Below, piece after piece: positions 31,254 to 57,504 of a stretch of 64,000 bases of DNA. How positions within the stretch are numbered: the stretch's first letter is position 1; every line of letters starts with the position of its first letter. A program made the translations under genes and the position numbers. The stretch is from an uncultured candidate division WWE3 bacterium. GTDB taxonomy: Bacteria > Patescibacteriota > WWE3 > UBA101185 > UBA10185. The stretch spans positions 33,596-97,595 of the forward strand of contig CAVXUZ010000005.1 in NCBI GenBank assembly GCA_963765125.1, in the 5' to 3' direction. The notes beneath the pieces are model-generated. The model did not search any database, was not told the origin of the DNA, and worked only from the letters and a program-made list of their open reading frames with translations.

Positions 31254-31255
31254 AT

Positions 31256-32458: not shown

Positions 32459-32598
32459 AAAACCAATTATTAGGTTGGTGATTGCAACAACAGTAATTGT
32501 TAGCTTTGCTAATTGGATATAAATCTGTTTAGAATTAATAAGTTGAACGTAATTATTTATTATAAAAATATAATTTTGAAAGGGGGTGTATTAGAACA

Positions 32599-33096: not shown

Positions 33097-33152
33097 TCAC
33101 CTGTCTAAGATTGGATGATAGTAACGCCCATGTGCACATGATAGCGTTACGT

Positions 33153-33186
33153 GAAAAGCCCTCCTAATCGAGGGCTTTTCTAACTT
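33153..33186 (+). terminator. Rho-independent terminator after the major pilin gene
   Basis: GAAAAGCCCTC-ctaatc-GAGGGCTTTTC is a perfect 11-bp stem followed by a T-rich tail. A second palindrome GTAACGC...GCGTTAC lies at 33121-33150. Confidence 0.6.
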
Positions 33187-33212
33187 TAGAAATATGCTAA
33201 ACTTACTAAGGT

Positions 33213-35218: not shown

Positions 35219-35248
35219 AAAAATATTTTGGTATATACTAGAAATACT

Positions 35249-35635
35249 ATGGAAGAAAACATTACAAAGAAAAAAACCGTACTTTTAGTTGAGGACGAAG
35301 TAGATTTAGTAGATTTATACACAGAAATATTAAACGAAGCGGGTTACGATGTACTCCCCTCTTATGACGGTGAAGATGGAATTTATAAAGTAAAAAATGA
35401 AAAATGGGATTTGTTACTTTTAGATATTATGCTCCCAGAAAAAGATGGTATGGCTGTACTTGAAGAAATGCAAAAAACTGAGGCCTCAAAAAAGGGACCG
35501 GTGGTGCTACTCACAAACCTAAACAGTGAAGATCTCATAGAACGTGCATACAAACTAGGTGCCGATGACTATTTAATCAAATCAGAAATTTCGTTAGACG
35601 ATATTGTTAAAAAAGTAAAACAGTATCTTAGTTAA
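35249..35635 (+). CDS. Single-domain response regulator (receiver only), divergent from the histidine kinase
   Basis: VLLVEDEVDLVDLYTEIL...DLLLLDIMLPEKDGMAVLEEMQ...VVLLTNL...K. Start taken at ATG 35249 (MEENITKKK); the track uses TTG 35228. The stop overlaps the start of the next gene. Confidence 0.8.
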   Translation: MEENITKKKTVLLVEDEVDLVDLYTEILNEAGYDVLPSYDGEDGIYKVKNEKWDLLLLDIMLPEKDGMAVLEEMQKTEASKKGPVVLLTNLNSEDLIERAYKLGADDYLIKSEISLDDIVKKVKQYLS

Positions 35636-36171
35636 TGTTTAAGCTTAGTAAAAAAAGAATCACAATTATTTTATTTGTTATTGTCATTTTGGCAATTACC
35701 ACAGCCGCCGTCATTTTTATACTTCCAAAGATAACAAATAAAAAAAGTGTAGTTAGAGATCAGCCAATTGCATACGAGGACACTAAAGACACAATTGTTC
35801 CCGAAGAAGCAGCAGCGTTGATAGAGTTAAATGCAATTTTAGATCCTGAAACCGACTATTGGGCAGACTGGAGCTGGCAAGCAAAATATGCAGAGTTTAT
35901 CATAAGCAATTTAAGTGTTGCTGATAATTACATTGTTGGCTACATTAGCAGACCGGTGGCGTTATCGAATAATAATGCGCAGATAGTAAAACACCCGTTA
36001 TGTGATCCTACAAAGTCGATTGCGGTTTCCAAAGATGATCCACTTAGAGGTATAAATGCAAAAGGCTTTGAATTTATGCAACGTGCAAGCTCTGGAGATA
36101 TTTTCTACACCAATTGTTTAGACGAGGAGTGTTTTAACATTGGCAATAACTGTGTCTTAGTAGAATTTTAA
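35635..36171 (+). CDS. Membrane-anchored small secreted protein, member 1 of a C-x3-C-x6-C C-terminal motif family
   Basis: N-terminal signal-anchor KRITIILFVIVILAITTAAVIFIL. C-terminus ...ASSGDIFYTNCLDEECFNIGNNCVLVEF. Clear paralog of the 40272 gene and related to 36174. Confidence 0.6.
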   Translation: MFKLSKKRITIILFVIVILAITTAAVIFILPKITNKKSVVRDQPIAYEDTKDTIVPEEAAALIELNAILDPETDYWADWSWQAKYAEFIISNLSVADNYIVGYISRPVALSNNNAQIVKHPLCDPTKSIAVSKDDPLRGINAKGFEFMQRASSGDIFYTNCLDEECFNIGNNCVLVEF

Positions 36172-36173
36172 AA

Positions 36174-36749
36174 ATGAAAAAATTAATAAACAAAAAAATA
36201 TTACGAATCTTATTAATAATACTTGGCGTTATATTGCTGGGCTTTATAGTTAGCCCATTTATTTTTAGTAAACGAGTAGAAATTAATGAGTTTGACCAGA
36301 TTTATATAAAGAGTAATAGATTTGTTTTACCTAAATTAATTTCAATAGAAAAAAGACAAGATATCGGGGTTAAAGAGGCAGGTTTAATCAAAACCGAAAT
36401 TATCTCTCCTGAGGGTAAAACTGGTATTAACGAACTTTCTTATTGGGATACGTGGACTTGGAACACAAAATTGGTAAAACTAGAAATCTTAAGAGTTTCT
36501 GTTGAAAGCGGTAATGTTTACGCAAGTCTATTACTTCCTGCCGAGTCGAGTGGGTTGTCACCAGAAAAAGAGTACGAAATCAAATGCAGTGTTGATGAAA
36601 CATCTGTTATTTATTTTCGTGATCCAGCTAATCGCAACGATGAGTATAAACCAGCGATTGAACTGTTAGCGTCCGGTGACCTGTTCTACGCATATTGTTT
36701 GGATTCTCAATGTAGTTCTCTTGGTCGACGCTGTATTATTGAGCGCTAA
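36174..36749 (+). CDS. Membrane-anchored small secreted protein, member 2 of the C-x3-C-x6-C family
   Basis: Signal-anchor ILRILLIILGVILLGFIV. C-terminus ...LASGDLFYAYCLDSQCSSLGRRCIIER. Confidence 0.55.
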   Translation: MKKLINKKILRILLIILGVILLGFIVSPFIFSKRVEINEFDQIYIKSNRFVLPKLISIEKRQDIGVKEAGLIKTEIISPEGKTGINELSYWDTWTWNTKLVKLEILRVSVESGNVYASLLLPAESSGLSPEKEYEIKCSVDETSVIYFRDPANRNDEYKPAIELLASGDLFYAYCLDSQCSSLGRRCIIER

Positions 36750-37847: not shown

Positions 37848-40097
37848 GTGAACAATACTTCACCTTGCCTAAAACTTAATACCATATTATTAATCCGTTT
37901 GTTAATTTTTATTACTAGTGCTTTTTTACTTTCATTTGCTACAAAAAACGTTATTTACGCAGGCTGCGCCGCAAACGAATGTGACGGACCAGGTGAATAC
38001 GAGTGCGAGAATGGAACGATGTGCTGTACAGGCGGCGGATGTCCATCAAACAGATGTCCAGCCAACTGCACTGCTAGAATTTATTCGGGTTATTGGACGT
38101 GTAATTGTACACTATCAAGAGAGGTATGTTCCATTCCTACACCGTATGATTGTGAGCCTTGCATTACTGAAAGGGTGTGTGGACCAGAGACAACATGTGG
38201 TTATGTGAGTAGTTCAACATGTGCACAATGGGCTACCCGTTCTTACCCATGTCGACAAAAGACATGTTGGTATAATTATTGTTGGTACACTTGGGGCACA
38301 TGCAAGTCAACATACTGTGCAAGATACTATCAGGTTTGGCGCTGCTCAACCACAGACGTTTGCAAAAATGTTAAAAATTGTAGTACTTGCTACAAAAAAA
38401 ATTGCTTCATAGAGTACTACGAAGATCAAACAACCTACACCGCTAGAGGTACATGTAAATACTGTACACAGGGTGGCGGCGGGGGTGGTGGCTCTTGCAC
38501 AACTAACCCAACTGCGCCTACTTTAAATACCCCATTTGAAGGTTCGTCAATGCAAGGTAGTCTAGCAATTGATTTTAGCTGGAATGCCCCGACAAGTTGG
38601 GGGGCTAATTGTACGCCCGCAAGTTACTTTCTAATGGTTGATGACGAGAGTAGTTTTACAGACCCCCGAGTGCACAGCGTGTCGTACCCAACTTCGACTA
38701 CATCACAAACCGTTACAATGCCGGGAGAAGATACTTATTTTTGGAGAGTTCAGGCGTGTAATCAACGCGGCTGTACCTCATCTGTCACGAGGTCATTTAA
38801 CTTTAGTTGCGGTATAGCTCCTGGTAGAGCAACTAACCCATCGCCGTCAGATGGTGCGACCGACGTTACTATTGCACCAACACTATCATGGGATGGCCCA
38901 TCAGATTGGGGTTCAGCATGTGGTATGAACAACAACAATAGATTCACAGTTTACGGTCAGGTTAAAAATGGAGTATGTGAGGGTCCAGGTTCTGGCTATT
39001 CTGCAATACCTTCTTGTACAAATTTACCTGAGGGTACGACATCTTGTATAGACCCATTTTTCAACACCAGCAGTACCCCTTACTGTTGGTATGTTTCCAC
39101 AAACAACGGTACAGAGACGACGCTTTCTGCCTCTACTGCTGATGAAGTATGGGAGTTTAGAACAGAAGAGCCCATCACTTATACAAATTGGGTTACTGCA
39201 TTGTTTGGTGATTTTTATGCAGGAGGTTTAACCGAGCAATACCCAAGCACAACACGCTATGTGACGCCTTGGAATCCTCCATATGCAGCATATGAAAAAG
39301 AACCTACCTCCTCTGATGAGCCAAACGTAGCACTTATCACAAGCAATGATACGGATATAACAAATGATAATGGTGCTAATGAATACAATCCCGGATCTCA
39401 ATCAAATCTATCAGTTGAATTTGCTAACTTTGAAGAAACATGGCCTGCAAGCTACCGCGGTACTCCCCCAGCTTCAGCTATTAATTTACCTTTAAATGGA
39501 GGCTCTTGTTCAGATATCTTCACAGGTAGTACAAAGCTTGATCCTTACGAAGTATATGAAGCTGATGCAAGCTGTATGTCAGAAGCAATCAATGCAGTTG
39601 ATGGTAACCCCAATGGCTATTCACTAGCCTCAGACGGTTATACAGTTATCTTTGTTACAGGAAGCACAAACCTTGAAATAGACAGTCCATTTACCACATC
39701 AAATGATGATTACCGTGTGGTATTTGTTACTGGACCTAATGTTTCAGTACAGATAGATAGAAACTTAAAGTTAGCAACCGATCCTGATTTTAACAGTGAG
39801 CCTTTAATTGAAGCTGCCTTTATCGTTACCAAAGACTTAACCATTGAGGGTGCTGCTAACGATTCATCTATAGACCTAACTACTGATCCAGATGGTTCAA
39901 TTATGGTTGAGGGTCCACTTATCGCAAGAACAGTAAACTTTAACAGAAACAGAGGTCTAACTAATCAATATCCATCAGAGATTGTTAAATACAATCCTAA
40001 CTACATATATAACCTAACAGAACAAGAAAGAACCTCTCTAAAAAACAATGGTTCAGGCCTGTTTGTTATTGATATTACTTGGATGAATGTAGACTAG
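37848..40097 (+). CDS. Giant secreted protein 1 (749 aa): signal peptide, extremely Cys-rich module, Gly7 linker, two FN3-like domains, and a conserved C-terminal domain shared with the 43554 gene
   Basis: About 40 Cys in residues 38-218 (CAANECDGPGEYECENGTMCC...CKYCTQGGGGGGGSC). FN3-like repeats with the W...Y.W.VQACN..GC...TRSF pattern. C-terminal 261 codons nearly identical at the DNA level to 44931-45714. Confidence 0.7.
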   Translation: MNNTSPCLKLNTILLIRLLIFITSAFLLSFATKNVIYAGCAANECDGPGEYECENGTMCCTGGGCPSNRCPANCTARIYSGYWTCNCTLSREVCSIPTPYDCEPCITERVCGPETTCGYVSSSTCAQWATRSYPCRQKTCWYNYCWYTWGTCKSTYCARYYQVWRCSTTDVCKNVKNCSTCYKKNCFIEYYEDQTTYTARGTCKYCTQGGGGGGGSCTTNPTAPTLNTPFEGSSMQGSLAIDFSWNAPTSWGANCTPASYFLMVDDESSFTDPRVHSVSYPTSTTSQTVTMPGEDTYFWRVQACNQRGCTSSVTRSFNFSCGIAPGRATNPSPSDGATDVTIAPTLSWDGPSDWGSACGMNNNNRFTVYGQVKNGVCEGPGSGYSAIPSCTNLPEGTTSCIDPFFNTSSTPYCWYVSTNNGTETTLSASTADEVWEFRTEEPITYTNWVTALFGDFYAGGLTEQYPSTTRYVTPWNPPYAAYEKEPTSSDEPNVALITSNDTDITNDNGANEYNPGSQSNLSVEFANFEETWPASYRGTPPASAINLPLNGGSCSDIFTGSTKLDPYEVYEADASCMSEAINAVDGNPNGYSLASDGYTVIFVTGSTNLEIDSPFTTSNDDYRVVFVTGPNVSVQIDRNLKLATDPDFNSEPLIEAAFIVTKDLTIEGAANDSSIDLTTDPDGSIMVEGPLIARTVNFNRNRGLTNQYPSEIVKYNPNYIYNLTEQERTSLKNNGSGLFVIDITWMNVD
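39267..40050 (+). repeat. 784-bp intragenomic direct repeat, copy 1 (partner at 44931-45714); in-frame coding sequence
   Basis: Base-by-base comparison of the printed lines. The copies are identical except two adjacent third-position synonymous differences at 39956-39957 (ggtcta versus gggtta). Confidence 0.85.
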
Positions 40098-40271: not shown

Positions 40272-40802
40272 ATGCCCGTTAAAGATTACATACAAAAGAA
40301 AAAATTCTCCGTCACCATACTTCTGATAGTTATTGTTGTAACACTAATTACTGTAGGTTTCGTAATGCCGCTCATCACCAACCCAGAAAAAAAAGTTGCT
40401 AAAGATACAAAGACAACGCAAGTTGGAAAACTAGACGCAAACATGTTGCCATCAGAATTTGTAAAAGCGTTTTCAGAAGGGTCAATGTATTTTAAAAATT
40501 GGAACTGGCATGACAAAATGGTGCAAGTCATAATTACAGACTCAAGCGTTAGTGAAGATTCGATGGCAGGCTACATCAGAAACCTAACTGATAAATTTCC
40601 TGACAGAGAAAACAGAAGATTTTTTAACTCGTGCACGCCTGAACAAACTTTTGCTGTGTCTAACGTCAACCCAACTAAAAGCGTTTTAGCAAAAGGTTTT
40701 GGTTTAGTGAGCCGTGCCTCTGCGGGAGACATCTTATATACGTACTGTCTTGACGAAAACTGTGTAAACCTCGGCAAGAGCTGCGTGCTGATTGAATTTT
40801 AA
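40272..40802 (+). CDS. Membrane-anchored small secreted protein, member 3 of the C-x3-C-x6-C family
   Basis: Signal-anchor FSVTILLIVIVVTLITVGFVM. C-terminus ...ASAGDILYTYCLDENCVNLGKSCVLIEF. About 45% identical to the 35635 product over the C-terminal half. Confidence 0.6.
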   Translation: MPVKDYIQKKKFSVTILLIVIVVTLITVGFVMPLITNPEKKVAKDTKTTQVGKLDANMLPSEFVKAFSEGSMYFKNWNWHDKMVQVIITDSSVSEDSMAGYIRNLTDKFPDRENRRFFNSCTPEQTFAVSNVNPTKSVLAKGFGLVSRASAGDILYTYCLDENCVNLGKSCVLIEF

Positions 40803-40902: not shown

Positions 40903-40948
40903 CCTTATCAATTGTATGTGCTCAGTCAATACCGCAAAGGAGGTACAA

Positions 40949-41386
40949 ATGGCTGTTAAGAATGGCTCGGCTGTATTTGTTGTTGTGAGCGTTTTATTAC
41001 TGGTTATGGTACTTGTAGTGACGATTGTTTATATAACATTAAAACTTACTGCACCGATTGAGTTAAGGAGCTTTACGGACGTAACTGACAAAGTTATCTC
41101 TGGAGAGATTGTTTGCGCCCCATTGGGAGACGCGCAGTTAGAAAGAACAAGACTTGGTCTAAAATCAGGTCGCACCACTATAGTAAATCAACTCTACCCG
41201 AGTCATAACGTGTCAGTGGCATGTTCCTTTCTTGTGGTGCTCGAGTCAGCTAATCCAGAAGTAGTTACGATCGTTTATTACAAAAAAGGTGGAGTTAGGG
41301 TAGTGGAGAGGGTTTTAATAGACCCGCGGAATGCAGCGCAACTCTGGAAAAATGCTAAACCGGTAAATGGTAACTTAAATTTATAA
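40949..41386 (+). CDS. Small secreted/membrane-anchored protein, tandem paralog A (146 aa)
   Basis: Start at the ATG preceded by AAAGGAGGTACAAATG, which is the identical RBS context of the 42261 gene. Signal-anchor AVFVVVSVLLLVMVLVVTIVYI. Conserved blocks VISGEIVCAPLGD and VVTIVYYKKGGVRVVERVLIDPRNAAQLWKNA are shared with the 41548 and 42261 products. Confidence 0.55.
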   Translation: MAVKNGSAVFVVVSVLLLVMVLVVTIVYITLKLTAPIELRSFTDVTDKVISGEIVCAPLGDAQLERTRLGLKSGRTTIVNQLYPSHNVSVACSFLVVLESANPEVVTIVYYKKGGVRVVERVLIDPRNAAQLWKNAKPVNGNLNL

Positions 41387-41401
41387 ATTGTAGATTTGTT
41401 A

Positions 41402-41440
41402 GTCCCCATCTCTTTCACCAAGATGTGGGGATTTAATTTG
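41402..41440 (+). terminator. Stem-loop terminator after paralog A
   Basis: TCCCCATCTCTTTCACCAAGATGTGGGGA followed by TTTAATTTG. Confidence 0.4.
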
Positions 41441-41464
41441 TTTGATAGCCCAACACAAATAGTA

Positions 41465-41500
41465 CCTATAGTTGCACTTAGCAAAGATTTATGAGTAAAT
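41465..41500 (+). promoter_or_regulatory. Conserved upstream element CCTATAGTTG-N17-TGAGTAAAT, copy 3 of 4
   Basis: Same motif and spacing as at 40866 and 42179. Confidence 0.45.
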
Positions 41501-41547
41501 AGCATCAAGATAAATCCGTATATTCCACATCAAGGAAGGAGGGAAGA

Positions 41548-42099
41548 GTGGCTACAAATAACAACTTTAGTAAGGTTGTAGTTTTAATGCTTGCTGTGCT
41601 ACTGGTTGCTGTTTCAGGTTGTAATGAGACTCAGGCAAGTGTTTCACCGACCGTTGAACCAACTCTGGCACCAACGATCGTGATTAAAAATATTGCTACA
41701 ACGACGCTGCCACCAACTACCAAGCCCACGTTAGTACCAACACCTTCGGAGGAACTTGGGTCAACATCAACACCAATAGCTGTAGTAGAAATTAGATCAC
41801 TAGATGAATTGATTACTACTGTTAATAATGAAGTTATTGCTGGTGCACCCATCTGTGGAACACCCAAACTTGGGGATTCAGGAGTAACGTTATCTAACGG
41901 TTTTAAGTACTTAAGCTTAAAAACAAAAGTGTTTCCGGATTTAGAAAAAATACTTTGCCAGTACCTTATTATTATGCCAAATGAGCATACTCCAACTGTT
42001 ACAGCAGTATATTTAAGAGATGGTGTGTACCTACTTGAAAATGTAAAGATCGAAAAGAGCCTATTAAATGATTTTTGGAAAAAAGGTTTAACTGAGTAG
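41548..42099 (+). CDS. Lipoprotein, tandem paralog B (183 aa); GTG start
   Basis: Signal peptide with lipobox LLVAVSGC. Thr/Pro-rich linker. C-terminal domain VIAGAPICGTPKLGDSGVTLSNGFKYLSLKTKVFPDLEKILCQYLIIMPNEHTPTVTAVYLRDGVYLLENVKIEKSLLNDFWKKGL is homologous to the 42261 product. Confidence 0.55.
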   Translation: MATNNNFSKVVVLMLAVLLVAVSGCNETQASVSPTVEPTLAPTIVIKNIATTTLPPTTKPTLVPTPSEELGSTSTPIAVVEIRSLDELITTVNNEVIAGAPICGTPKLGDSGVTLSNGFKYLSLKTKVFPDLEKILCQYLIIMPNEHTPTVTAVYLRDGVYLLENVKIEKSLLNDFWKKGLTE

Positions 42100-42120
42100 T
42101 AAACACCTAAGTCGCAATCA

Positions 42121-42162
42121 AACCCCACCTTACTTTTTAAGAAGATGGGGTATTTTTTTAAA
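42121..42162 (+). terminator. Stem-loop terminator after paralog B
   Basis: AACCCCACCTTACTTTTTAAGAAGATGGGGT followed by ATTTTTTT. Confidence 0.45.
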
Positions 42163-42178
42163 AAGCATTTTAACATGC

Positions 42179-42214
42179 CCTATAGTTGCAAATTTACCTA
42201 AAATATGAGTAAAT
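42179..42214 (+). promoter_or_regulatory. Conserved upstream element CCTATAGTTG-N17-TGAGTAAAT, copy 4 of 4
   Basis: Reads as TTGCAA-N17-GTAAAT (sigma70-like) preceded by the conserved CCTATAG. Confidence 0.45.
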
Positions 42215-42260
42215 AACAACAGAACAAATCAACGCAAACAATACCATAAAGGAGGTACAA

Positions 42261-42764
42261 ATGAATGCGAAAAATAACCACACTAAGGTTATGGTTGTTG
42301 TTATTGTTATAGTAGCAATACTGGTCATGGGTTATACCACAGCAGACGCAGGGTATCTTCTGACAGGAAAAAATACTCTGGGATCCAAGGTTGCGCGGAG
42401 CTCAGTGTCGTCTTCGATGGCTGATTCCACCTTGATGTTCTTGCCAATATCCCTAGACGAGAAAATTGATTCTATCGCAGAAGATGTAATTGCTGGAAAG
42501 ACAGTATGCGGTGATCCAGGAGCTGACTTAACAGCCATGAAGTTTGACTCTGGATACAGATACGTAAGATGGCATGTAACAAAGTTTCCGGAGTACAAAC
42601 AGGTGATGTGTAAACTCATTGTTGTGCTACCGTCAGAAAAGTCGTCCACTGTTTTTGTTGTATATTTAAACAACGGCGATTACACGGTTAGTGAGGCCCT
42701 TGTTGATTCCAAAATACTTAAATCTTTTTGGAAAAGAAGTCTATTGATAACCACAGAATCTTGA
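42261..42764 (+). CDS. Secreted/membrane-anchored protein, tandem paralog C (167 aa)
   Basis: RBS AAAGGAGGTACAAATG. Signal-anchor VMVVVIVIVAILVMGY. C-terminal domain VIAGKTVCGDPGADLTAMKFDSGYRYVRWHVTKFPEYKQVMCKLIVVLPSEKSSTVFVVYLNNGDYTVSEALVDSKILKSFWKRSL. Confidence 0.55.
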   Translation: MNAKNNHTKVMVVVIVIVAILVMGYTTADAGYLLTGKNTLGSKVARSSVSSSMADSTLMFLPISLDEKIDSIAEDVIAGKTVCGDPGADLTAMKFDSGYRYVRWHVTKFPEYKQVMCKLIVVLPSEKSSTVFVVYLNNGDYTVSEALVDSKILKSFWKRSLLITTES

Positions 42765-42770
42765 TAGGAG

Positions 42771-42810
42771 ATCCCCACTTCAATTTTATTGGACTGGGGA
42801 TTTACTTTAT
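42771..42810 (+). terminator. Stem-loop terminator after paralog C
   Basis: ATCCCCA-cttcaattttattggac-TGGGGAT has a perfect 7-bp stem and is followed by TTACTTTAT. Confidence 0.45.
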
Positions 42811-42811
42811 G

Positions 42812-42840
42812 TTGACATAGGTGAACAATAATTACATAAT
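42812..42840 (+). promoter_or_regulatory. Sigma70-like promoter TTGACA-N17-CATAAT ending 6 nt before the GTG/ATG start of the 42847 gene (possible leaderless transcript)
   Basis: Consensus -35 TTGACA at 42812-42817. 17-nt spacer. -10 CATAAT at 42835-42840. Confidence 0.5.
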
Positions 42841-42846
42841 TTTACT

Positions 42847-43575
42847 GTGATGAATGTATTGCCCAAAAGAAACGCCATCCTGGTAAGTGTAATTATAATC
42901 TTGTTTACTCTAACGCTATTATCCATCGTGCCGTACTTAACGTTAAGAAGCTACATCAAAAGAAATGTTGATAAAAATATAGAATATGTGTTTTACGTTG
43001 AGGTAGAAGATTCATTAAAAAATTCAAAATATCCAAATCTTGCGACTTGGTACCTAAGTAAGGTACAGAACTTTTATAAAGCAGTACTTAATAGGGAGTT
43101 TCTTGTAGAGCTACCTGATTATAATACTGTTTTTCAAGCCTACGACTACACCGAATACCCAGCTGTATTTTTGGTCAAGAATTATGACTTACCAACAGAC
43201 GAGATAAGTATTGAATTTGTAATGCCCACTGATTTTGCTGAATTTACAGCAGTAGCAAAGTTGAACTGCGGTAAGGCAACAACGCGTGCTGGTGTATACA
43301 GTGCTAGCCAGCAAACCGAGAAATGGGCAATACTCAAGGAGTTACGACAGAGTAATCTTAGCGAAGAAGACAGGTTTACTTTGATTGGTAAATTATATCG
43401 CGCAATTCCGTTTGAAGAACAGCTATCAGTGGAAAATGGTGTTGGCCAGACAATTCAGGAGATGCTGGAGCGATCAGAAATAACACAGGACAAAAGGCAG
43501 CTAAAATTGGTAACAACTTGTAGAGAGGACCAGTGTGACAATACCTCTGAGCAATGTATTCTGTACATTCAATAA
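42847..43575 (+). CDS. Membrane-anchored secreted protein (242 aa), divergent member 4 of the C-x3-C-x6-C family; overlaps the start of giant protein 2 by 22 nt
   Basis: Signal-anchor AILVSVIIILFTLTLLSIV. C-terminus ...KLVTTCREDQCDNTSEQCILYIQ. Confidence 0.55.
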   Translation: MMNVLPKRNAILVSVIIILFTLTLLSIVPYLTLRSYIKRNVDKNIEYVFYVEVEDSLKNSKYPNLATWYLSKVQNFYKAVLNREFLVELPDYNTVFQAYDYTEYPAVFLVKNYDLPTDEISIEFVMPTDFAEFTAVAKLNCGKATTRAGVYSASQQTEKWAILKELRQSNLSEEDRFTLIGKLYRAIPFEEQLSVENGVGQTIQEMLERSEITQDKRQLKLVTTCREDQCDNTSEQCILYIQ

Positions 43576-45761
43576 ATATGAAAATTAATAAAAACTATAC
43601 TAATAAGAGTGCCTTACCTTTTGTAGCGTCATTGTTTCTTGCGTGTGTTATTTTGTTTAGTCCTGTTGCCGATGCAAAAATTTACAATCCTAAACCAAAA
43701 CCTGGAAAATATATTAACTGGGACAGAGTTTACAAAGAGAGAATAAATAAAATTCATGAGAAGGATGCCAAGATGGCGGCGACTTACGCAAGACTGGCAG
43801 CTAAAAACCCAGATAAGCTGAGAGATTTAATCGATACATGGGCAGCAAACAAAGGTATTACTCATGATCAGTTTAATGTCTGGGAGGTAAAGAATCTTTA
43901 TTCAATAATCTCGGGAGGAAGCGTTGTCCTTGGTAGCTTTGGGCCGTCTGCGGACTATGAGTTTATTGTCAGCGATGACGGCACAAAGATGTATTGGAGT
44001 GACGCCACCGGCGGTTATACAAGTATAACTGTACCTGCGCGTTACACTACAGTATCAGGTCAGTATGCGTCATATAATTCATCAACTGGTGTTGTTTGTT
44101 ACAGTTGGATTGGTTGTACTATACCAACTACCGCATCTAATGGAAATACAAACAATGGATGTAGTGGGCTACCTACGGCGCCACCACTTGTTAGTCCCCT
44201 CAACGGTGCAACAATCTTTGAGAATAAAACGATTAGTTTTCAGTGGGGTGCACCCACTGGGTGGGGTACAAACTGTCCAACTCATGTATATAGGCTACAA
44301 GTTGACGACGAAAACACGTTTAGTGAGCCTTCTGCTTTAGATTCTGGTTTTGATGGTAGTACAACCTCAACGACAGCAGATTTTACTTTAAATAAAGAGT
44401 ACTTTTGGAAAGTTCAAGCTTGTAACGCAAAAGGATGCACCCCCTCTGTAACAAGATCATTCATACTTGGTTGCGGTATCGCTCCAGGAGTTGCATCAAA
44501 CCCAACACCTTCAGACGGTGCAATAGATGTAGTTATTGCACCAACACTGTCTTGGGATGGTCCATCCGATTGGGGCTCAGCATGCGGTATGGATAACAAT
44601 AATACATTTACGGTATACGGTCAGGTTAAAAATGGACTGTGTGAAACTCCAGGCCCAGGTTATTCTGCAATTCCAACTTGTACAAACCTCTCTGAAGCAT
44701 CAACATCTTGTGTAGATCCATTCTTTAACACTCGAAGCACACCATATTGCTGGTATGTAGGAACAAACAATGGAACAGAAAGTAATACGTCAGCAGCAAC
44801 AGCTGACCAAGTATGGGAGTTTAGAACTGAAGACCCCCTTCTCTTTGAAAACTGGGTAACCACACTTTTTGGTGATTTTTATGCAGATACTCTTGCAGAA
44901 CAATATCCTAAATCAGCAAACTACGCATCCCCTTGGAATCCTCCATATGCAGCATATGAAAAAGAACCTACCTCCTCTGATGAGCCAAACGTAGCACTTA
45001 TCACAAGCAATGATACGGATATAACAAATGATAATGGTGCTAATGAATACAATCCCGGATCTCAATCAAATCTATCAGTTGAATTTGCTAACTTTGAAGA
45101 AACATGGCCTGCAAGCTACCGCGGTACTCCCCCAGCTTCAGCTATTAATTTACCTTTAAATGGAGGCTCTTGTTCAGATATCTTCACAGGTAGTACAAAG
45201 CTTGATCCTTACGAAGTATATGAAGCTGATGCAAGCTGTATGTCAGAAGCAATCAATGCAGTTGATGGTAACCCCAATGGCTATTCACTAGCCTCAGACG
45301 GTTATACAGTTATCTTTGTTACAGGAAGCACAAACCTTGAAATAGACAGTCCATTTACCACATCAAATGATGATTACCGTGTGGTATTTGTTACTGGACC
45401 TAATGTTTCAGTACAGATAGATAGAAACTTAAAGTTAGCAACCGATCCTGATTTTAACAGTGAGCCTTTAATTGAAGCTGCCTTTATCGTTACCAAAGAC
45501 TTAACCATTGAGGGTGCTGCTAACGATTCATCTATAGACCTAACTACTGATCCAGATGGTTCAATTATGGTTGAGGGTCCACTTATCGCAAGAACAGTAA
45601 ACTTTAACAGAAACAGAGGGTTAACTAATCAATATCCATCAGAGATTGTTAAATACAATCCTAACTACATATATAACCTAACAGAACAAGAAAGAACCTC
45701 TCTAAAAAACAATGACTCAGGTCTGTTTGTTGTTGATGTTACTTGGATTAGCGACGAATGA
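43554..45761 (+). CDS. Giant secreted protein 2 (735 aa): signal peptide, non-Cys-rich N-terminal domain, FN3-like domains, and the same conserved C-terminal domain as the 37848 gene
   Basis: Signal peptide ALPFVASLFLACVILFSPVADA. The FN3-like region is 70-85% identical to protein 1. The C-terminal 261 codons (44931-45714) are nearly identical in DNA to 39267-40050. Confidence 0.7.
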   Translation: MYSVHSINMKINKNYTNKSALPFVASLFLACVILFSPVADAKIYNPKPKPGKYINWDRVYKERINKIHEKDAKMAATYARLAAKNPDKLRDLIDTWAANKGITHDQFNVWEVKNLYSIISGGSVVLGSFGPSADYEFIVSDDGTKMYWSDATGGYTSITVPARYTTVSGQYASYNSSTGVVCYSWIGCTIPTTASNGNTNNGCSGLPTAPPLVSPLNGATIFENKTISFQWGAPTGWGTNCPTHVYRLQVDDENTFSEPSALDSGFDGSTTSTTADFTLNKEYFWKVQACNAKGCTPSVTRSFILGCGIAPGVASNPTPSDGAIDVVIAPTLSWDGPSDWGSACGMDNNNTFTVYGQVKNGLCETPGPGYSAIPTCTNLSEASTSCVDPFFNTRSTPYCWYVGTNNGTESNTSAATADQVWEFRTEDPLLFENWVTTLFGDFYADTLAEQYPKSANYASPWNPPYAAYEKEPTSSDEPNVALITSNDTDITNDNGANEYNPGSQSNLSVEFANFEETWPASYRGTPPASAINLPLNGGSCSDIFTGSTKLDPYEVYEADASCMSEAINAVDGNPNGYSLASDGYTVIFVTGSTNLEIDSPFTTSNDDYRVVFVTGPNVSVQIDRNLKLATDPDFNSEPLIEAAFIVTKDLTIEGAANDSSIDLTTDPDGSIMVEGPLIARTVNFNRNRGLTNQYPSEIVKYNPNYIYNLTEQERTSLKNNDSGLFVVDVTWISDE
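44931..45714 (+). repeat. 784-bp direct repeat, copy 2 (partner at 39267-40050)
   Basis: See copy 1. Identity breaks exactly at both ends (g/c before, g/a after). Confidence 0.85.
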
Positions 45762-45892
45762 TTAGATCTGTAAAAGGATTGTTTGAAAACAGTAGATTTG
45801 GGTTGTTGTTTGTGATTGTATTTTTTATGGTGTCGATGTTTGTTGCCTACTACATTGCACCATTAATTATGCAAAGTGTGTTTGCAAGATAG
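45758..45892 (+). CDS. Possible 44-aa single-TM micro-protein whose ATG overlaps the stop of giant protein 2 (ATGA)
   Basis: MIRSVKGLFENSRFGLLFVIVFFMVSMFVAYYIAPLIMQSVFAR, read manually. Below the ORF-track cutoff. No homolog known. Confidence 0.25.
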   Translation: MIRSVKGLFENSRFGLLFVIVFFMVSMFVAYYIAPLIMQSVFAR

Positions 45893-45974: not shown

Positions 45975-46841
45975 ATGATAAAAAAATACAATACTGCTCT
46001 AAAAGAATCAGAAAAAGGACAAGCGTTGCTTTTTGTTGTAGTCGCTATGACAATTGCTTTGTCTATTGGAATTAATTCAAGTGTCAGAACACTTACCTCC
46101 CTGTCAAGAACTTCAAGATCAGACACGGCCTCAAGAGCTTTAGCTGCAGCAGAGGGCGGCATTGAGAGATATCTTGCACTCTCTACAACCGAACTAGAGA
46201 GTACGATTACTGGCAATTGCGCAGCAGGAACTTATGATCAAACAGCAGAAGCTTGCCTGATAGAGTTTGATGCTTCTTCTGATGCAATTGTTTCTCAAGC
46301 TCACGTTACTGTGCAAAGATACGAACCAGATTTCTATCCCTTTGATTTAGAGAGTGGCCAAGTTAAAGAAGTGAATCTTTATGATTACAACAGCGGTAAT
46401 CATTACGGTGCTTCTACTGTCGAAGTTTGTTGGAATTCAAAACCACAATCAGAGTTAATGTATATTGCATACAAAGACTCCGGTATTAGTGCTCGTGGTG
46501 GTCTTACCGGTTCAAACGCACCAGATGCTCCTTACAGCAGCAAAGGTTTTGAAAGCGCAGGACCGGGCAGAGACGGATACGCTAACTGCAAAACTATAGA
46601 TATAACTAATGATGTTTACGGGCTGAGAATTAGATCTGTTGGTGATGCTTCTAGCGTTGCAGTGTTCCCTACCGGCAATGAGAGACTCCCTCTTCAAGGT
46701 TATACAATTAAATCTATTGGAAGAATACAACAGGACCAAGGCGTTACCGCTACGAGAACAATTAGCATTATAAGAAGTCTAGCTTATCTCCCTGTAAGCT
46801 TTGACTATGCGTTATATTCAGAGGGCTCGATTACTAAATAA
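45975..46841 (+). CDS. PilX-like minor pilus protein (PilX_N-type N-terminus, no prepilin cleavage site)
   Basis: MIKKYNTALKESEKGQALLFVVVAMTIALSIGINSSV...ASRALAAAEGGIE. Paralog of the 50417 gene (shared C-terminal FDYALYS / FDYALFQ). Confidence 0.6.
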   Translation: MIKKYNTALKESEKGQALLFVVVAMTIALSIGINSSVRTLTSLSRTSRSDTASRALAAAEGGIERYLALSTTELESTITGNCAAGTYDQTAEACLIEFDASSDAIVSQAHVTVQRYEPDFYPFDLESGQVKEVNLYDYNSGNHYGASTVEVCWNSKPQSELMYIAYKDSGISARGGLTGSNAPDAPYSSKGFESAGPGRDGYANCKTIDITNDVYGLRIRSVGDASSVAVFPTGNERLPLQGYTIKSIGRIQQDQGVTATRTISIIRSLAYLPVSFDYALYSEGSITK

Positions 46842-46848
46842 TCTGACC

Positions 46849-47298
46849 ATGCCCAAAAATCAATATCTAAAAACACAAAGTGCCTTTACGCTAATCGAAC
46901 TGTTAATTGTTATTTCTGTTGTTGGCATATTATCCGGAGTTTTGGTAAATGTTATAGATTCGAAAGGTCAAAAAAATAAAGCACTAGACAGTGTTCATCG
47001 AAAAGACATAAACGATTTAGCAGTTTCAATCGAGTCTTACAGGACAGCAGAAGGTTCATACCCCGATGAGGGAACAGAAAACAACCCTCTTGACCCCAGC
47101 GCGTCTACGAGAAATACTGCCGCGGTTTATATAACAGAGTGGCCAGTGGGTGTTATTTATATAAAAAACGATCCTGATTTTGCAATTTATATTCAAAAAG
47201 AAGCTGATACAAATTTTATAAAGTATAATTCGGTGTGGAGAGAATTCAGAGAGTGCGCTGATACAACAAATCCAACCAGTATTACCGACTGTGATTAA
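46849..47298 (+). CDS. Type IV (minor) pilin
   Basis: Start moved to the internal ATG. Leader MPKNQYLKTQSA|FTLIELLIVISVVGILSGV with E+5. Confidence 0.7.
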   Translation: MPKNQYLKTQSAFTLIELLIVISVVGILSGVLVNVIDSKGQKNKALDSVHRKDINDLAVSIESYRTAEGSYPDEGTENNPLDPSASTRNTAAVYITEWPVGVIYIKNDPDFAIYIQKEADTNFIKYNSVWREFRECADTTNPTSITDCD

Positions 47299-49865: not shown

Positions 49866-50417
49866 ATGAAAAAAACCGTAGAGAAAAATGGATTTACACT
49901 AATAGAATTAATCATTGTAGTTTCAATTTTAGCCATTGCTGTTGGAGTAACCAGCGATGTTCTAATTAACTTAGTGAGGTCATACAACAAAAGTCAGGTA
50001 TCGCATGAGGTTGAACAGAACGCAAACTTTGTTGGACAAAAATTGGTTAAAGAATTACGAAACGCTACGGTGATTACAGACCTTGATCTCGGCGACTTAA
50101 CCCCGCTTCAACAAGGCGACCATTACAATGAAGTTACTTTTTTAGACTCGGCGGGTAATGAAATAATTTATAGTGTTTTAGGCGGGATAATATTTAGAAA
50201 TAGTGGGTCTGGTGATGAAGAGCTGACTGAGAATAATCCACCATATGGTATTGACGCGGCGTGTCCAAACACAGACGACTGTTTTACTTTGCTATCCGCG
50301 AATCCACAGGTCTTAAGAATATCCATTATTATGACGCAAGCCGGCACACCGGGTAACCGCTCATTTGAAGGCGAAATAAATATCGAAGATACAATAGTCA
50401 TAAGGAACACGTATTAA
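49866..50417 (+). CDS. Type IV (minor) pilin
   Basis: Leader MKKTVEKNG|FTLIELIIVVSILAIAVGV. Confidence 0.75.
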   Translation: MKKTVEKNGFTLIELIIVVSILAIAVGVTSDVLINLVRSYNKSQVSHEVEQNANFVGQKLVKELRNATVITDLDLGDLTPLQQGDHYNEVTFLDSAGNEIIYSVLGGIIFRNSGSGDEELTENNPPYGIDAACPNTDDCFTLLSANPQVLRISIIMTQAGTPGNRSFEGEINIEDTIVIRNTY

Positions 50418-51226
50418 TGAAAAATAACCTTTATAACAATGAAAAAGGTCAGACCTTACTCATCATGTTTGTGATGATGGTTATCGCACTTTCTATAGGA
50501 ATTGCAATTTCTACAAGATACATTGGTGGTTTAAGGAATATTACGCAATCCGATCTTTCTACAAGGGCAATCGCAGTAGCCGAAGCAGCTGTTGAACATA
50601 TCTTGTTATTACCAATCGAAACAATCGAAGACTATGCAACAAATGGCACATGCGGGGCAAACTGTACGCTCTCGATAACTGGCGATGATGGTCAGGTGCT
50701 GACTGCAAACGTGACTTTAACAATCTTAGGTTCGAGTTCAGAGCCTTACCTTCTTCAACTTAAAACAGACGAGACATCGCAGGTTAATCTTCAAGGTTAC
50801 CCACAAAATCAAAACGTTTATATTTGTTGGGATGAACCAGATATGTCAATCACCGGTCTTTATTTAAATGGTGCTGTTGGTAGTTATCAAGCTGACGCAT
50901 TCTCATATAATCCTCCAACGACATCTCATGCTGATAATAATTTTTCAAACGCTGCTGCTCAACAAGGTTATAGCAGTTGTATTACTATAGCCAGTATTGC
51001 AAATTCAAATATGTTGAGATTAAAAGCACTTTATAATGAAGGTTACGTCGTTGTAATACCCGCAAGCGGACAAGTATTACCAAACCAAGGAATTTTAATT
51101 GAGTCAGTCGGCAACGCAGGAGATGTAACAAAAACGGTCACGGTACTTATTACAGACCCCATTATGCCAGCACAATTCGACTACGCGCTTTTTCAAAAAT
51201 CGAACACTCAGCCATTGTCTAACTAG
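50417..51226 (+). CDS. PilX-like minor pilus protein, paralog of the 45975 gene
   Basis: MKNNLYNNEKGQTLLIMFVMMVIALSIGIAISTRY...TRAIAVAEAAVEH. C-terminal FDYALFQ. Confidence 0.6.
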   Translation: MKNNLYNNEKGQTLLIMFVMMVIALSIGIAISTRYIGGLRNITQSDLSTRAIAVAEAAVEHILLLPIETIEDYATNGTCGANCTLSITGDDGQVLTANVTLTILGSSSEPYLLQLKTDETSQVNLQGYPQNQNVYICWDEPDMSITGLYLNGAVGSYQADAFSYNPPTTSHADNNFSNAAAQQGYSSCITIASIANSNMLRLKALYNEGYVVVIPASGQVLPNQGILIESVGNAGDVTKTVTVLITDPIMPAQFDYALFQKSNTQPLSN

Positions 51227-51249: not shown

Positions 51250-52281
51250 ATGCCCTCAGTACTAGGTCTTGATTTAGGTCAACACACGTTCCGAGCCGTT
51301 GAGATTGAAGTTTCAAAAAAAGGTACGTTTCTCAATCATTATGGGGTTTACGATAATCAAAATATTGATTTCGATGGAACAGATGCTGACTCACAAAAAG
51401 AATATTCTCACGCGATCAAAGAGTTTATAAAAGACTCAGGATTTTCTACTCCTCAAGTAATAATTTCACTTGAAGATAAAGATATTTTTATGAGGGTGAT
51501 TAGCGTACCTCAAATGAGTGATAAAGAACTAAGTAGTTCGATAATGTTTGAAGCAGAACAATACATTCCCCTACCGATAAAAGAAGTTAATCTTAGTTAC
51601 CAAGTACTTGATATTCCTACTAACGAACCAGGAAGAGTGAGCGTTCAGTTGGTGGCAGCAAGAAAAGATATTATTCAAAAATCAATTAGCCTTGTTAAAG
51701 AAGCGAAACTAACACCGGTAGGAATAGAACCAGAAGCGTTGTCTATTGGACGCGCTTTAGGTGAAGCCTCTGACGCTAGCGCAAATATAATTTTACATTT
51801 AGGTTACAGAAAATCTCTTATTATAGTTGCTCTGAAAGGATTTGTTGTTTTTAACAGAACGTTATCTATTGGAGGAGATGCTATGACCAGGGCCTTGAGT
51901 CAGGCGTTAAACCTAGATTACATACAAGCTGAAGAGTATAAAAAAGCGTATGGATTGATGCAGGAACAAGCTGAGGGGCGTATTTATGAGGTTATTAAGC
52001 CCATGTTTGACAGCATAAACGATGAAATTGGTCGCGCACAAGTATTTTTTACAACTCACCACCCGGGTGTTACTATTAATAAAGTGTTGTTATCCGGAGG
52101 TACTGCCCTAATGCCAGGATTATTATTATACATGGCAAATAATTTAAGCCTCGAAGTCGAACTAGCTAACCCATTTAAAAAGGTAGCATTTTCTAAAGAT
52201 CTAGAGAGTAAAAAAGAGTGGCTGATGGAGAATGGCCCATTATTTACCGCCCCCGTTGGGCTGGCGTTAAAGGAATTTTAA
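51250..52281 (+). CDS. pilM: Type IV pilus assembly protein PilM (actin-like ATPase fold)
   Basis: MPSVLGLDLGQHTFRAVEIE... N-terminus. Sugar-kinase/actin fold blocks (ILHLGYRKSLIIVA; LLSGGTALMPGL). 343 aa. Confidence 0.8.
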   Translation: MPSVLGLDLGQHTFRAVEIEVSKKGTFLNHYGVYDNQNIDFDGTDADSQKEYSHAIKEFIKDSGFSTPQVIISLEDKDIFMRVISVPQMSDKELSSSIMFEAEQYIPLPIKEVNLSYQVLDIPTNEPGRVSVQLVAARKDIIQKSISLVKEAKLTPVGIEPEALSIGRALGEASDASANIILHLGYRKSLIIVALKGFVVFNRTLSIGGDAMTRALSQALNLDYIQAEEYKKAYGLMQEQAEGRIYEVIKPMFDSINDEIGRAQVFFTTHHPGVTINKVLLSGGTALMPGLLLYMANNLSLEVELANPFKKVAFSKDLESKKEWLMENGPLFTAPVGLALKEF

Positions 52282-52284
52282 TCG

Positions 52285-52836
52285 ATGGCGCAATCTATTA
52301 ACCTCATCCCCCAAGAAGAAAGATTAGCTCAAACAAAAACAAAAGTTGTTAAAGTAAGTACGATTCTAACAGTAGTGCTTCTCGTAATTGTTGGAGGTGT
52401 TGGAGGATATTATTTCTATAGAGCGAGTACGATAAAGTCAGAATTAAATAATCTTGAAACACAGGTAAATTCACTTAGATCAGATATTTCGCAACTTAAA
52501 GACATGGAGATCAATGCGAGAAATCTTTATAAAAAATCGACTGCATTGGGTACTATATTTTCGAGTCGTGTCTATTATTCAAAAATGCTTTCAGCACTAG
52601 AACAGAGTACGCCAGAAGGAATCCTGATTGATTCTTTTGGACTCGGAACCGACCAGACGGTTGCAATTTCAGGCCGAGCAAATACCTATAATGATGTGCA
52701 GAGTTTTACAAATCGATTACTTGAACGCGAATTATTTACTGAGGTTGAATTAAAGTCAGTCGGTCTCGAAAGCCGTCAAGAAAAAGTAAACTTTTTTATA
52801 GTAGTAAGTTACGACTTAGGATTATTACATGAATGA
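52285..52836 (+). CDS. pilN: Type IV pilus assembly protein PilN
   Basis: Short cytoplasmic N-terminus (INLIPQEERL), a single TM, then a coiled coil. Position directly after pilM. Confidence 0.7.
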   Translation: MAQSINLIPQEERLAQTKTKVVKVSTILTVVLLVIVGGVGGYYFYRASTIKSELNNLETQVNSLRSDISQLKDMEINARNLYKKSTALGTIFSSRVYYSKMLSALEQSTPEGILIDSFGLGTDQTVAISGRANTYNDVQSFTNRLLERELFTEVELKSVGLESRQEKVNFFIVVSYDLGLLHE

Positions 52837-53755
52837 AGACCTAGGACTACAACCACAAATGGATCAAGCAGATCAACAAATGGATAAAGTGTTATCAGAG
52901 GCGACGAACCAGTTCAAACAGCCGATTGTAATGCCAAAGAAATCAAGTGTTCAACTAGACGCTATAAAAGAAACATTACTAAACTACATAGTCCCGTTGG
53001 TTTCTATACTTCTCACAGTCCTGATCGGTTTATTTGTCTTATATCCTTCATACAAAAGTCTCCCCGACCTTCAAACACAGCTAGATCAAAAGAGGCTTCT
53101 AAAATCAAACCTCGAGAAAAAGATAGACAATTTAAATAGACTCGCAGATTTTAAAAATGTTGTTGATGAAGATGCTGCGCTAGTCAGTAAAGTACTGGTA
53201 TCAGATCAATTAATACCTGGGTTGTTAACTCAAGTCGACAAAATTACACAAGAGGCTGGCCTTTCAATCAATAGACTTAACTACGGAGTTGGTGTAACAA
53301 CCCAAGCCGGCGGTACAGCGACGCCAGTCACATACAACTATGTAACTGTAAATCTTGGCGTAACAGGAAGTTTTGAACAAATTAAAACATTTTTATCAAG
53401 ACTCGAAGGCGCGGCAAGAATAATTGATGTCGATAAGTTTAGATACACACTCAGTGAAACAGACGCAGGAAACTTTTTAGGTGTGAATTTTGTGTTAGTT
53501 TCACCTTATCTATTTGTTGAATCCACAGCTATAACTGATGAGTCTATTAATCTCGATATCTCGAGCCCAGCTTTTGTAGGATTAATTAATAAAATAAAAA
53601 ATCTTAATTACTACGATCCAAATGAAATAAATCTCGAAGTTCCTGTTATAGAGGCAACAGAAGAAGACAAGGAAGAAGAGTTAACAGGTGAAGAAATTAT
53701 TCAACAAGTCACACAGCAAGAAGTTCTGCAGGGTGCGGGTGAACCAACTCAGTAG
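52829..53755 (+). CDS. pilO: PilO-like pilus assembly protein
   Basis: Single TM (IVPLVSILLTVLIGLFVLY) followed by a coiled coil and a periplasmic domain. Position after pilN. The Glu-rich C-terminus is atypical. Confidence 0.5.
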   Translation: MNEDLGLQPQMDQADQQMDKVLSEATNQFKQPIVMPKKSSVQLDAIKETLLNYIVPLVSILLTVLIGLFVLYPSYKSLPDLQTQLDQKRLLKSNLEKKIDNLNRLADFKNVVDEDAALVSKVLVSDQLIPGLLTQVDKITQEAGLSINRLNYGVGVTTQAGGTATPVTYNYVTVNLGVTGSFEQIKTFLSRLEGAARIIDVDKFRYTLSETDAGNFLGVNFVLVSPYLFVESTAITDESINLDISSPAFVGLINKIKNLNYYDPNEINLEVPVIEATEEDKEEELTGEEIIQQVTQQEVLQGAGEPTQ

Positions 53756-57362: not shown

Positions 57363-57492
57363 GGTGCGGGAGGATGGATTCGAACCACCATTTCCGTGCG
57401 AAGTTGGTTCAACATGGGCATTAAGGCCTGATACGCCAGAACACACTCGGCATGTTAACTACCACGGCGCCTTACCACTAGGCCACTCTCGC
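57363..57492 (-). tRNA. Atypical tRNA-like gene (130 nt): canonical acceptor, D and T arms, with a roughly 57-nt insertion within the anticodon loop; isotype undetermined
   Basis: Acceptor GCGAGAG/CTCCCGC (one A:C mismatch). T8. D-arm GCCT-AGTGGTA-AGGC. Anticodon stem CCGTG...CACGG separated by 64 nt. Variable loop AAAT. T-arm GGTGG-TTCGAAT-CCATC. Discriminator A plus CC. Confidence 0.45.
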
Positions 57493-57504
57493 GATTAAAT
57501 CCAG

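Follow-up and report, generated by a model that had tools for sequence, protein, structure and literature searches.

Two secreted paralogs in a type IV pilus locus of a WWE3 bacterium share a recently converted tract and an unannotated C-terminal domain found in Patescibacteria

How do two secreted proteins with unrelated N-termini come to share almost the same 3' coding sequence, and what might the shared part of the protein do? These questions are raised by a stretch of 64,000 nucleotides (hereafter the window; ~38% G+C) from an uncultured candidate division WWE3 bacterium (GenBank assembly GCA_963765125.1, contig CAVXUZ010000005.1, positions 33,596 to 97,595 of the forward strand), in which a type IV pilus locus harbors two paralogous genes, called here A and B, each containing one copy of a 784-bp repeat. 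A preliminary description made from the letters of the DNA had placed the second copy of this repeat at 44931-45714, at the C-terminus of a giant secreted protein, and had noticed a micro-ORF (open reading frame) that overlaps the stop codon of the same gene. The elements concerned are the following, in coordinates of the window.

37848-40097, plus strand: gene A, 749 amino acids (aa), GTG start (from the ORF list), paralog of B
43554-45761, plus strand: gene B, 735 aa (from the ORF list; compared with A by BLASTP)
39267-40050, plus strand: tract copy 1, gene A residues 474-734
44931-45714, plus strand: tract copy 2, 784 bp, gene B residues 460-720 (33-293 in the numbering of the 308-aa C-terminal domain)
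44835-45758, plus strand: conserved C-terminal domain of B, ~308 aa, beginning with NWVTTLFGDFY and ending with SGLFVVDVTWISDE, with limits taken from a hidden Markov model

Aligned on the same strand and in the same reading frame (offset 5664), 44931-45714 matches 39267-40050 at 782 of 784 bases, which bears out its description as the second copy of the repeat. The two mismatches are adjacent (45620/45621, corresponding to 39956/39957) and both are synonymous (GGG/GGT for glycine and TTA/CTA for leucine), so that the 261 encoded residues (PWNPPYAAYEKEP...ERTSLKNN) are the same in both proteins, as had been stated. The position of the repeat at the 3' end of the gene was also correctly given, since it covers residues 460-720 of the 735 of protein B; the word giant, however, does not suit a protein of this length or its paralog of 749 aa. 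Over 540 aa (A 207-746, B 193-732) the two proteins are 81% identical by BLASTP; the N-terminal ~200 aa are unrelated, the middle parts 62-75% identical and the C-terminal parts homogenised.

The boundaries of the tract were obtained by counting A/B nucleotide identity in consecutive segments of 60 nt. Identity is 33-50/60 on the 5' side and 38-44/60 in the last three segments before the tract (62-73% nucleotide identity in the 5' flank); it rises to 55/60 in the 5' boundary segment, stays at 58-60/60 in the thirteen segments within the tract, falls to 46/60 in the 3' boundary segment, which holds the last codons of both genes, and reaches ~21/60 past the stop codons. A block of near-identity with abrupt edges thus lies inside a longer diverged homology of 540 residues. 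Synonymous sites are homogenised as well: 259 of the 261 codons in the tract are identical between A and B, with a third-position identity of 0.996, compared with 82 of 166 codons at positions of the homologous 5' flank where the amino acid is conserved and a third-position identity of 0.41 there. The probability of 782 matches in 784 positions by chance is ~4e-94 in a calculation that assumes 75% identity. A generic repeat finder picked up only the diverged upstream homology (38736-39035 against 44400-44699, 76%) and missed the identical part, for which reason the direct comparison of A and B is the evidence that counts. A and B are paralogs of long standing, nearly saturated at synonymous positions outside the tract, and it is highly probable that 784 bp of one copy were overwritten by the other through recent non-reciprocal recombination (gene conversion).

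Purifying selection was ruled out as the source of the identity, because protein-level selection cannot yield a pattern in which the synonymous sites of the tract are homogenised too. An origin of the repeat from a mobile element or a phage was likewise ruled out, as there are no such genes in or around it and it is contained in two chromosomal paralogs. It might still be asked whether the identity reflects assembly or polishing (a collapsed or cross-polished paralog) and not biology, given that the window probably comes from a metagenome-assembled genome (MAG) and that exact repeats in MAGs can be artefacts. Both copies are in frame on one contig with distinct flanks, however, and they are told apart by the two adjacent synonymous differences; moreover, cross-mapping during polishing is not normal for paralogs that are 25-30% divergent (the nucleotide divergence of the 5' flank is ~27-38%), all of which makes an artefact very unlikely.

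Tandem pairs of the big gene are also present at two other Patescibacteria loci, L007 (702-8858) and L006 (1725-8864), among the comparison loci numbered here L001 to L019. The tails of these pairs are not homogenised (48% identity in L007 and 69% in L006), and the conversion in the window is therefore considered local and recent. Paralogous adhesins whose 3' parts are kept or made identical by non-reciprocal recombination are known from babA/babB of Helicobacter pylori and from the pil loci of Neisseria. They resemble A and B in combining near-identical 3' parts with diverged receptor-binding parts, whereas the proteins and the organisms are different, and in A and B there is a single tract and no sign of repeated switching was obtained. 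A gene-conversion tract in itself is an ordinary phenomenon; the domain content of this tract is more interesting.

Protein B comprises a signal peptide (~1-41), a unique N-terminal region with few cysteines that extends to ~192, two repeats (~193-427) and the C-terminal domain (428-735). The signal peptide, of Sec type as judged by eye and not by a predictor (MKINKNYTNKSALPFVASLFLACVILFSPVADA, cut before K), agrees with the earlier description of the protein as secreted. Protein A consists of a signal peptide, a cysteine-rich N-terminal region, the same two repeats as B and the C-terminal domain at 442-749 (nt 39171-40094). The repeats contain cysteines and putatively resemble Fn3/Ig-like modules, as read from their sequence. 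The head of A carries 29 cysteines within its first 210 aa, and that of B is cysteine-poor; the cysteine-rich head (37848-38470, residues ~38-206) aligns with the homologs L001/P0004, L003/P0006, L004/P0017 and L005/P0022, is absent from B and has no Pfam match. Nothing at or near curated cut-offs was found for the full A and B proteins in Pfam and NCBIfam scans, and neither protein matches the prepilin N-terminal methylation motif (TIGR02532/PF07963), although four downstream genes do. A sortase motif, a lipobox and a C-terminal transmembrane (TM) helix are all absent as read from the sequence, and a word-indexed protein search with B returned only B, its paralog A and one weak match.

The family to which the C-terminal domain belongs was delimited with an exhaustive HMMER search, in which residues 428-735 of B were compared with 1.84 billion representative proteins. 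It yielded 141 representatives at E<=1e-3 and 78 at E<=1e-10; the members range from ~300 to 1357 aa in length, and the match ends 0-6 residues from the C-terminus in nearly all of them. The shortest members (~330 aa) consist of a signal peptide followed almost directly by the start of the domain (W[FY]..xG.GV), with an apparent cleavage site, read by eye, just ahead of the conserved tryptophan. In larger members the recognisable modules N-terminal to the domain are of binding type and include CBM60, Big_7, TSP1 repeats, PKD, He_PIG, Big_9/13 and Fn3, and additionally SBBP/DUF5122 propeller repeats, cadherin-like modules and one Hint module. The ~308-aa domain is an unannotated protein family, located at the extreme C-terminus of nearly all members behind a signal peptide, and specific to Patescibacteria, where alone it was seen.

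In the database search of the shared domain that the preliminary description had proposed, sequence collections (Pfam, NCBIfam and PDB sequences) left it unmatched, and the structure comparison presented below returned weak resemblances only, to ice-binding proteins of beta-solenoid type. In Pfam there were only sub-threshold matches to DUF7305 in 3 of 36 members (best E 0.0034) and 2 of 65 (best E 0.035), none of which reached the gathering threshold of that family, and the window protein was unmatched; a remote relation of the domain to DUF7305 is possible from these similarities. The domain had no match in NCBIfam, a profile search of PDB sequences gave 0 matches, and a 36-sequence domain profile retrieved only 5 proteins in the word-indexed protein search. 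A literature search found no paper on DUF7305 and none describing the domain family. The domain, at present devoid of a Pfam, NCBIfam or PDB relative, deserves a family entry of its own. Its most conserved positions are W7, G13, P25, P100, Y129, Y150, G248, R259, N265, P268 and W304, and a cysteine pair (C113/C135) is invariant among the eight closest sequences. Across 36 full-length domains, the invariant or at least 90% conserved positions are occupied by W, Y, P, G, R and N, and neither acidic residues nor lysine are among them; the absence of a conserved acidic residue argues mildly against a hydrolase or lyase active site.

An AlphaFold2 model of the domain, built from the 36-sequence alignment, has a mean predicted local distance difference test score (pLDDT) of 89.4 and a predicted template modelling score (pTM) of 0.88. 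It is mostly beta, with ~17 beta-strands, a 13-residue helix (133-145) ahead of the C-terminal strands and a short C-terminal helix; the tail holding the conserved tryptophan is modelled with low confidence. In a Foldseek comparison with the PDB, 11 of the 15 top matches belong to the IBP-1/DUF3494 fold class (for example FfIBP, PDB 7ehk), none of them significant, the best PDB match having E 0.055, TM-scores of 0.30/0.41 and a root-mean-square deviation of ~10 A. There was no beta-propeller among these PDB matches, Foldseek against viral structures gave nothing meaningful, and the domain has no Pfam match to DUF3494 (PF11999). The IBP-1 fold is a beta-solenoid with one flanking alpha-helix, and the likeness resides in a mostly-beta model with one 13-residue helix; the resemblance is a lead only. 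The model indicates that the fold of the domain is probably beta-solenoid-like, with no established relative.

Does the neighbourhood of the gene say anything about what the domain does? In the window two PilX-like genes have to be considered.

45975-46841, plus strand: PilX-like pilin-type protein, 288 aa, N-terminus EKGQALLFVVVAMTIAL, the conserved downstream partner of the domain gene
50417-51226, plus strand: second PilX-like paralog, 269 aa, 29% identical to the 45975 product

The partner has 91 homologs, some of which carry a source annotation as type 4 fimbrial biogenesis or PulJ-like proteins, and these come from genomes of WWE3, Saccharimonadales and the 'Patescibacteria group'. Its AlphaFold2 model (pLDDT 87.6) shows a 63-residue helix (5-67) followed by an all-beta domain, a pilin-like 'lollipop'; the fold matches of this model are weak only, including jelly-roll and lectin-type proteins, and a profile search of PDB sequences with the protein gave 0 matches. 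The pairing with the domain gene recurs widely. A PilX-like homolog lies directly downstream of the domain gene in L002, L003, L004 and L005, as well as in L008 (a WWE3 genome), directly after the 834-aa copy in L006 and after each of the two domain-gene copies in L007. Loci with domain-only short forms (L009/L010 and L011/L012) have the PilX-like gene next as well, and in L010 the pair stands directly after PilD. Additionally, a PilX-like gene is next to the domain gene in all seven metagenome contigs L013-L019, which were found solely through a hand-made degenerate DNA motif of the domain and are thus unbiased as to their neighbours (a 3-sequence domain alignment used as a locus query had returned one genome locus and no metagenome locus). 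When only loci retrieved through the domain are counted, the PilX-like gene comes immediately after the domain gene at 11 of the 12 distinct loci, and in several the stop codon of the former and the start of the latter overlap or are 1-2 nt apart. The position of the domain gene directly upstream of a PilX-like gene in Patescibacteria type IV pilus loci is thus a tight and widespread linkage. The two-copy loci differ in how the partner is supplied, with an own PilX-like gene for each copy in L007 and one common to both copies in L006. As a further observation, the two PilX-like paralogs bracket the block of pilin genes in the window and likewise in L003, L006, L008 and L019; the locus may build a tip or priming complex from two PilX-like proteins.

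The remaining genes of the pilus locus are the following.

28420-34097, plus strand: PilB (28420), a PilT-type ATPase (30183), PilC (31256) and the prepilin peptidase PilD (33213), by PF00437, PF05157, PF00482 and PF06750/PF01478
46801-50417, plus strand: seven consecutive genes, four of which (46801, 47791, 48826, 49866) carry the prepilin N-terminal methylation motif (TIGR02532/PF07963)
51250-53755, plus strand: alignment-complex genes PilM, PilN and PilO (PF11104, PF05137, PF04350)

Within the seven-gene block, the motif scan covered five genes; 47291 and 48218 are paralogs of the motif-bearing ones, and 49355 has only a 0.065 NCBIfam match; orthologs of the block are present in L002, L003, L004 and L005. 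Together, the genes from 28420 to 53755 form a complete type IV pilus locus. The 59.7-kb contig L003, which belongs to a different assembly, repeats the gene order of the window from PilB to PilO and continues to trmD, S16 and RNase III; where the window has two big genes, L003 has one, which encodes 1162 aa and is flanked by a 299-aa gene and the PilX-like gene.

We propose, with a probability of roughly 0.6 for the explanation as a whole, that a recent gene conversion has homogenised two members of a Patescibacteria domain family which act as adhesins docked on the pilus. The functional part of this explanation, a pilus-associated adhesin docked by its tail, is about evenly balanced when taken alone. 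It draws on an analogy with PilY1 of Pseudomonas and Myxococcus and PilC1/PilC2 of Neisseria, which are non-pilin tip-associated proteins of type IVa pili with a C-terminal beta-propeller. By this analogy A and B would be non-pilin pilus-associated adhesins of a PilY1/PilC-like kind, with swappable heads and a conserved docking tail; the wording 'works like' is preferred to 'is a' because there is no sequence match to PilY1 and no propeller in the model. In the mechanism envisaged, proteins of the A/B type would be exported by Sec, and the conserved tail, apparently of beta-solenoid type, would dock the protein on a complex of the PilX-like protein and minor pilins that primes, and then caps, the pilus. 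The variable head would thereby be displayed as an adhesin toward a host cell or substrate. The window has two heads, that of A cysteine-rich and that of B not, and one adjacent PilX-like partner, with which identical tails would keep both compatible; that the tails are kept identical for the sake of a shared partner is speculation, as the L006 copies have one adjacent partner between them and yet are only 69% identical, the L007 copies have a partner each and are 48% identical, and the conversion itself may be neutral. Somewhat less probable than not, the tail could be an undescribed Patescibacteria-specific docking module for mounting interchangeable Sec-exported heads on a PilX-like tip pilin. 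Such a module would be an analogue of PilY1 that does not depend on its fold, and would serve as a plug-in system with which episymbiotic ultrasmall bacteria change what their pili bind, with conversion keeping two heads fit for one partner.

The likeness to PilY1 and PilC lies in large non-pilin proteins with a Sec signal, encoded in a minor-pilin cluster beside pilX-type genes, and in a variable N-terminal and a conserved C-terminal part; Neisseria also has two paralogs with similar tails. A and B are indeed non-pilins with a Sec signal, as judged by eye, and their genes stand among the minor-pilin genes of a type IV pilus locus. In contrast to PilY1/PilC, their tail is modelled as a non-propeller of ~17 strands and two helices with weak beta-solenoid matches only, the gene lies upstream of the PilX-like and pilin genes, and the family was seen only in Patescibacteria; the PilY1/PilC family (Neisseria_PilC) has no Pfam match in A, in B or in the 36 + 65 family members scanned. 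Secreted proteins that bind a tip minor pilin are known from Vibrio cholerae (TcpF with TcpB) and from enterotoxigenic Escherichia coli (CofJ with CofB). They share with A and B the encoding of a Sec-exported protein in a pilus operon, and differ in belonging to type IVb pili of diderm bacteria, in being released and in having no sequence or fold relation to A or B. The modular minor pilins PilB and PilC of Streptococcus sanguinis and PilX1/PilX2 of the Saccharibacterium TM7x are comparable in the proposed display of a binding module on a type IV pilus in the absence of an outer membrane, whereas there the module is fused to the pilin and in the window it would be on a separate Sec-exported protein encoded one gene upstream. 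No other pilin of its locus is as large as PilX1 of TM7x, which also has no canonical PilD signal; the authors of that study suggest that it may prime pilus assembly as PilY1 does (PMC11623550). The helix and beta-domain architecture described for PilX1 matches the model of the PilX-like protein of the window.

Other functions for the tail can be imagined. It could retain the proteins in the envelope, at the cell wall or S-layer, so that A and B would be surface adhesins of the ordinary kind, with no tie to the pilus beyond a common operon. Wall-anchored surface proteins typically join a variable functional head to a conserved C-terminal module; where a sortase motif, a lipobox and a C-terminal TM helix are all absent, the protein needs some non-covalent means of retention; and L001 carries the domain gene with no pilus genes within 13 kb. 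Against an envelope anchor speak the PilX-like gene that is immediately next in 11 of the 12 domain-retrieved loci, in distant lineages and often overlapping or 1-2 nt away, and the short forms, which are reduced to the domain and keep the PilX-like pairing; such an anchor is regarded as unlikely. The same low likelihood is given to A and B being soluble factors that the pilus machinery exports or presents before their release, as with TcpF or CofJ. The Sec-type signal peptide, the gene within the pilus operon by a minor-pilin-like gene and the lack of an anchor motif all suit a released factor, and the present data hardly separate it from the docked adhesin. A Sec substrate, however, would need no pilus piston to exit the cell if there is no outer membrane, which Patescibacteria are generally thought to lack, and heads of adhesion and carbohydrate-binding type make more sense when tethered.

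The tail might also be catalytic, namely a beta-helix enzyme, a kind of polysaccharide lyase or hydrolase, that would attack the cell-wall glycans of the host and be targeted by the CBM and Ig modules. The combination of CBM60 with the C-terminal domain resembles the layout of carbohydrate-active enzymes, and the weak fold matches include family 3 pectate lyases and iota-carrageenase. These lyase and carrageenase matches are not significant, however (E 1.4-7.5, TM-scores 0.1-0.2), no enzyme family of Pfam or NCBIfam was matched, and the lack of an acidic residue or lysine among the invariant or at least 90% conserved positions of the 36 domains speaks against catalysis as well, which makes an enzyme distinctly improbable.

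Several observations weigh against the docked adhesin. In L001, a Saccharibacteria MAG, the domain gene is followed by a gene of a small TM-protein family and pilus genes are absent within 13 kb; and gene A and the 889-aa copy in L006 have no PilX-like gene directly downstream. The divergence of the domain correlates with that of the PilX-like protein (r 0.94), a correlation that is confounded by shared phylogeny, and the adjacency of the two genes is a functional link and not a mechanism. Additionally, the type IV pilus loci of TM7x as described list no protein like A or B (PMC11623550).

Cultivated Patescibacteria all live attached to host cells, and their type IV pili are known to be important in binding the host (PMC11623550). 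Three components stand out in the pilus loci of several Patescibacteria lineages: a conserved two-gene module of a secreted modular protein with a conserved tail and a PilX-like pilin, a recurring small membrane protein beside it, and variable heads of adhesion type on the secreted protein. Should the tail dock on the tip of the pilus, the genes would be direct candidates for determinants of host range, a role that is testable in Saccharibacteria, now genetically tractable. The unannotated Patescibacteria-specific domain family forms a conserved two-gene module with a PilX-like pilin, which makes a fold-independent analogue of PilY1/PilC plausible and the family a candidate determinant of host recognition.

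The small membrane protein and the micro-ORF next to gene B belong to the following features.

40272-40802, plus strand: small TM protein, 176 aa, C-terminus ...YCLDENCVNLGKSCVLIEF, with paralogs at 35635-36171 and 36174-36749
45758-45892, plus strand: 44-codon ORF with one hydrophobic helix, whose ATG at 45758 overlaps the gene B stop (ATGA)

Proteins of this small family have ~176-220 aa, one N-terminal TM helix and a C-terminal cysteine motif (Y.YCLD..C...G..C.L); they adjoin big or PilX-like genes and have no Pfam match. By BLASTP they also occur beside big genes elsewhere (L001 5086-5649; L003 7872-8954, comprising 7872 and 8415; L005 1-330; L006 8872-9534; L008 5067-5720), and the family looks like the third conserved component of the module. 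The micro-ORF was correctly described as a TM micro-ORF of 44 aa that overlaps the stop of gene B through ATGA (TGA at 45759-45761). Its best local alignments, evaluated against shuffles, are with the N-termini of the 40272 product (z 6.1) and of L001 5086 (z 4.0), and BLASTP against a small database matched the N-terminus of L003_7872 (E 4.6e-4). It ends after 44 codons, 83 bp ahead of the next gene. These similarities suggest with moderate confidence that the micro-ORF is a truncated N-terminal remnant of a gene of the small TM-protein family, and with no more than that because the similarity of TM segments is easily overrated. An independent conserved micro-protein was rejected, given that the micro-ORF matches the N-terminal part of longer proteins of one family and breaks off early.

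Further genes accompany the island that contains A and B.

40916-43575, plus strand: four small genes (156, 183, 167 and 242 aa) with hydrophobic N-termini, flanked by the small TM gene 40272-40802 and by gene B

None of the four has a counterpart among the L003 genes compared. Three (40916-41386, 41548-42099 and 42261-42764, of 156, 183 and 167 aa) are paralogs with 30-32% identity over their C-terminal ~100 aa and have no Pfam match above threshold. Between PilD and the adhesin island, at 34094-35635, there is a histidine kinase gene (minus strand) with a response regulator gene; the same pair occupies the same place in L003, which suggests a dedicated regulation of that part of the pilus locus. 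A scan for promoters and terminators yielded counts that hardly differ from background. The ORF listed at 46801-47298 begins with TTG, and its first 41 nt lie within the end of the PilX-like gene; the real start of this gene is probably near 46849, with a prepilin-like sequence from an internal methionine (MPKNQYLKTQSAFTLIELL...). Outside the pilus locus, an Rfam tRNA model matches 128 nt at 57365-57492 (minus strand) with 45.7 bits, beside a tRNA-Ile at 57504-57578 and with no ARAGORN call; this may represent a degenerate copy or a tRNA interrupted by a long insertion or an intron.

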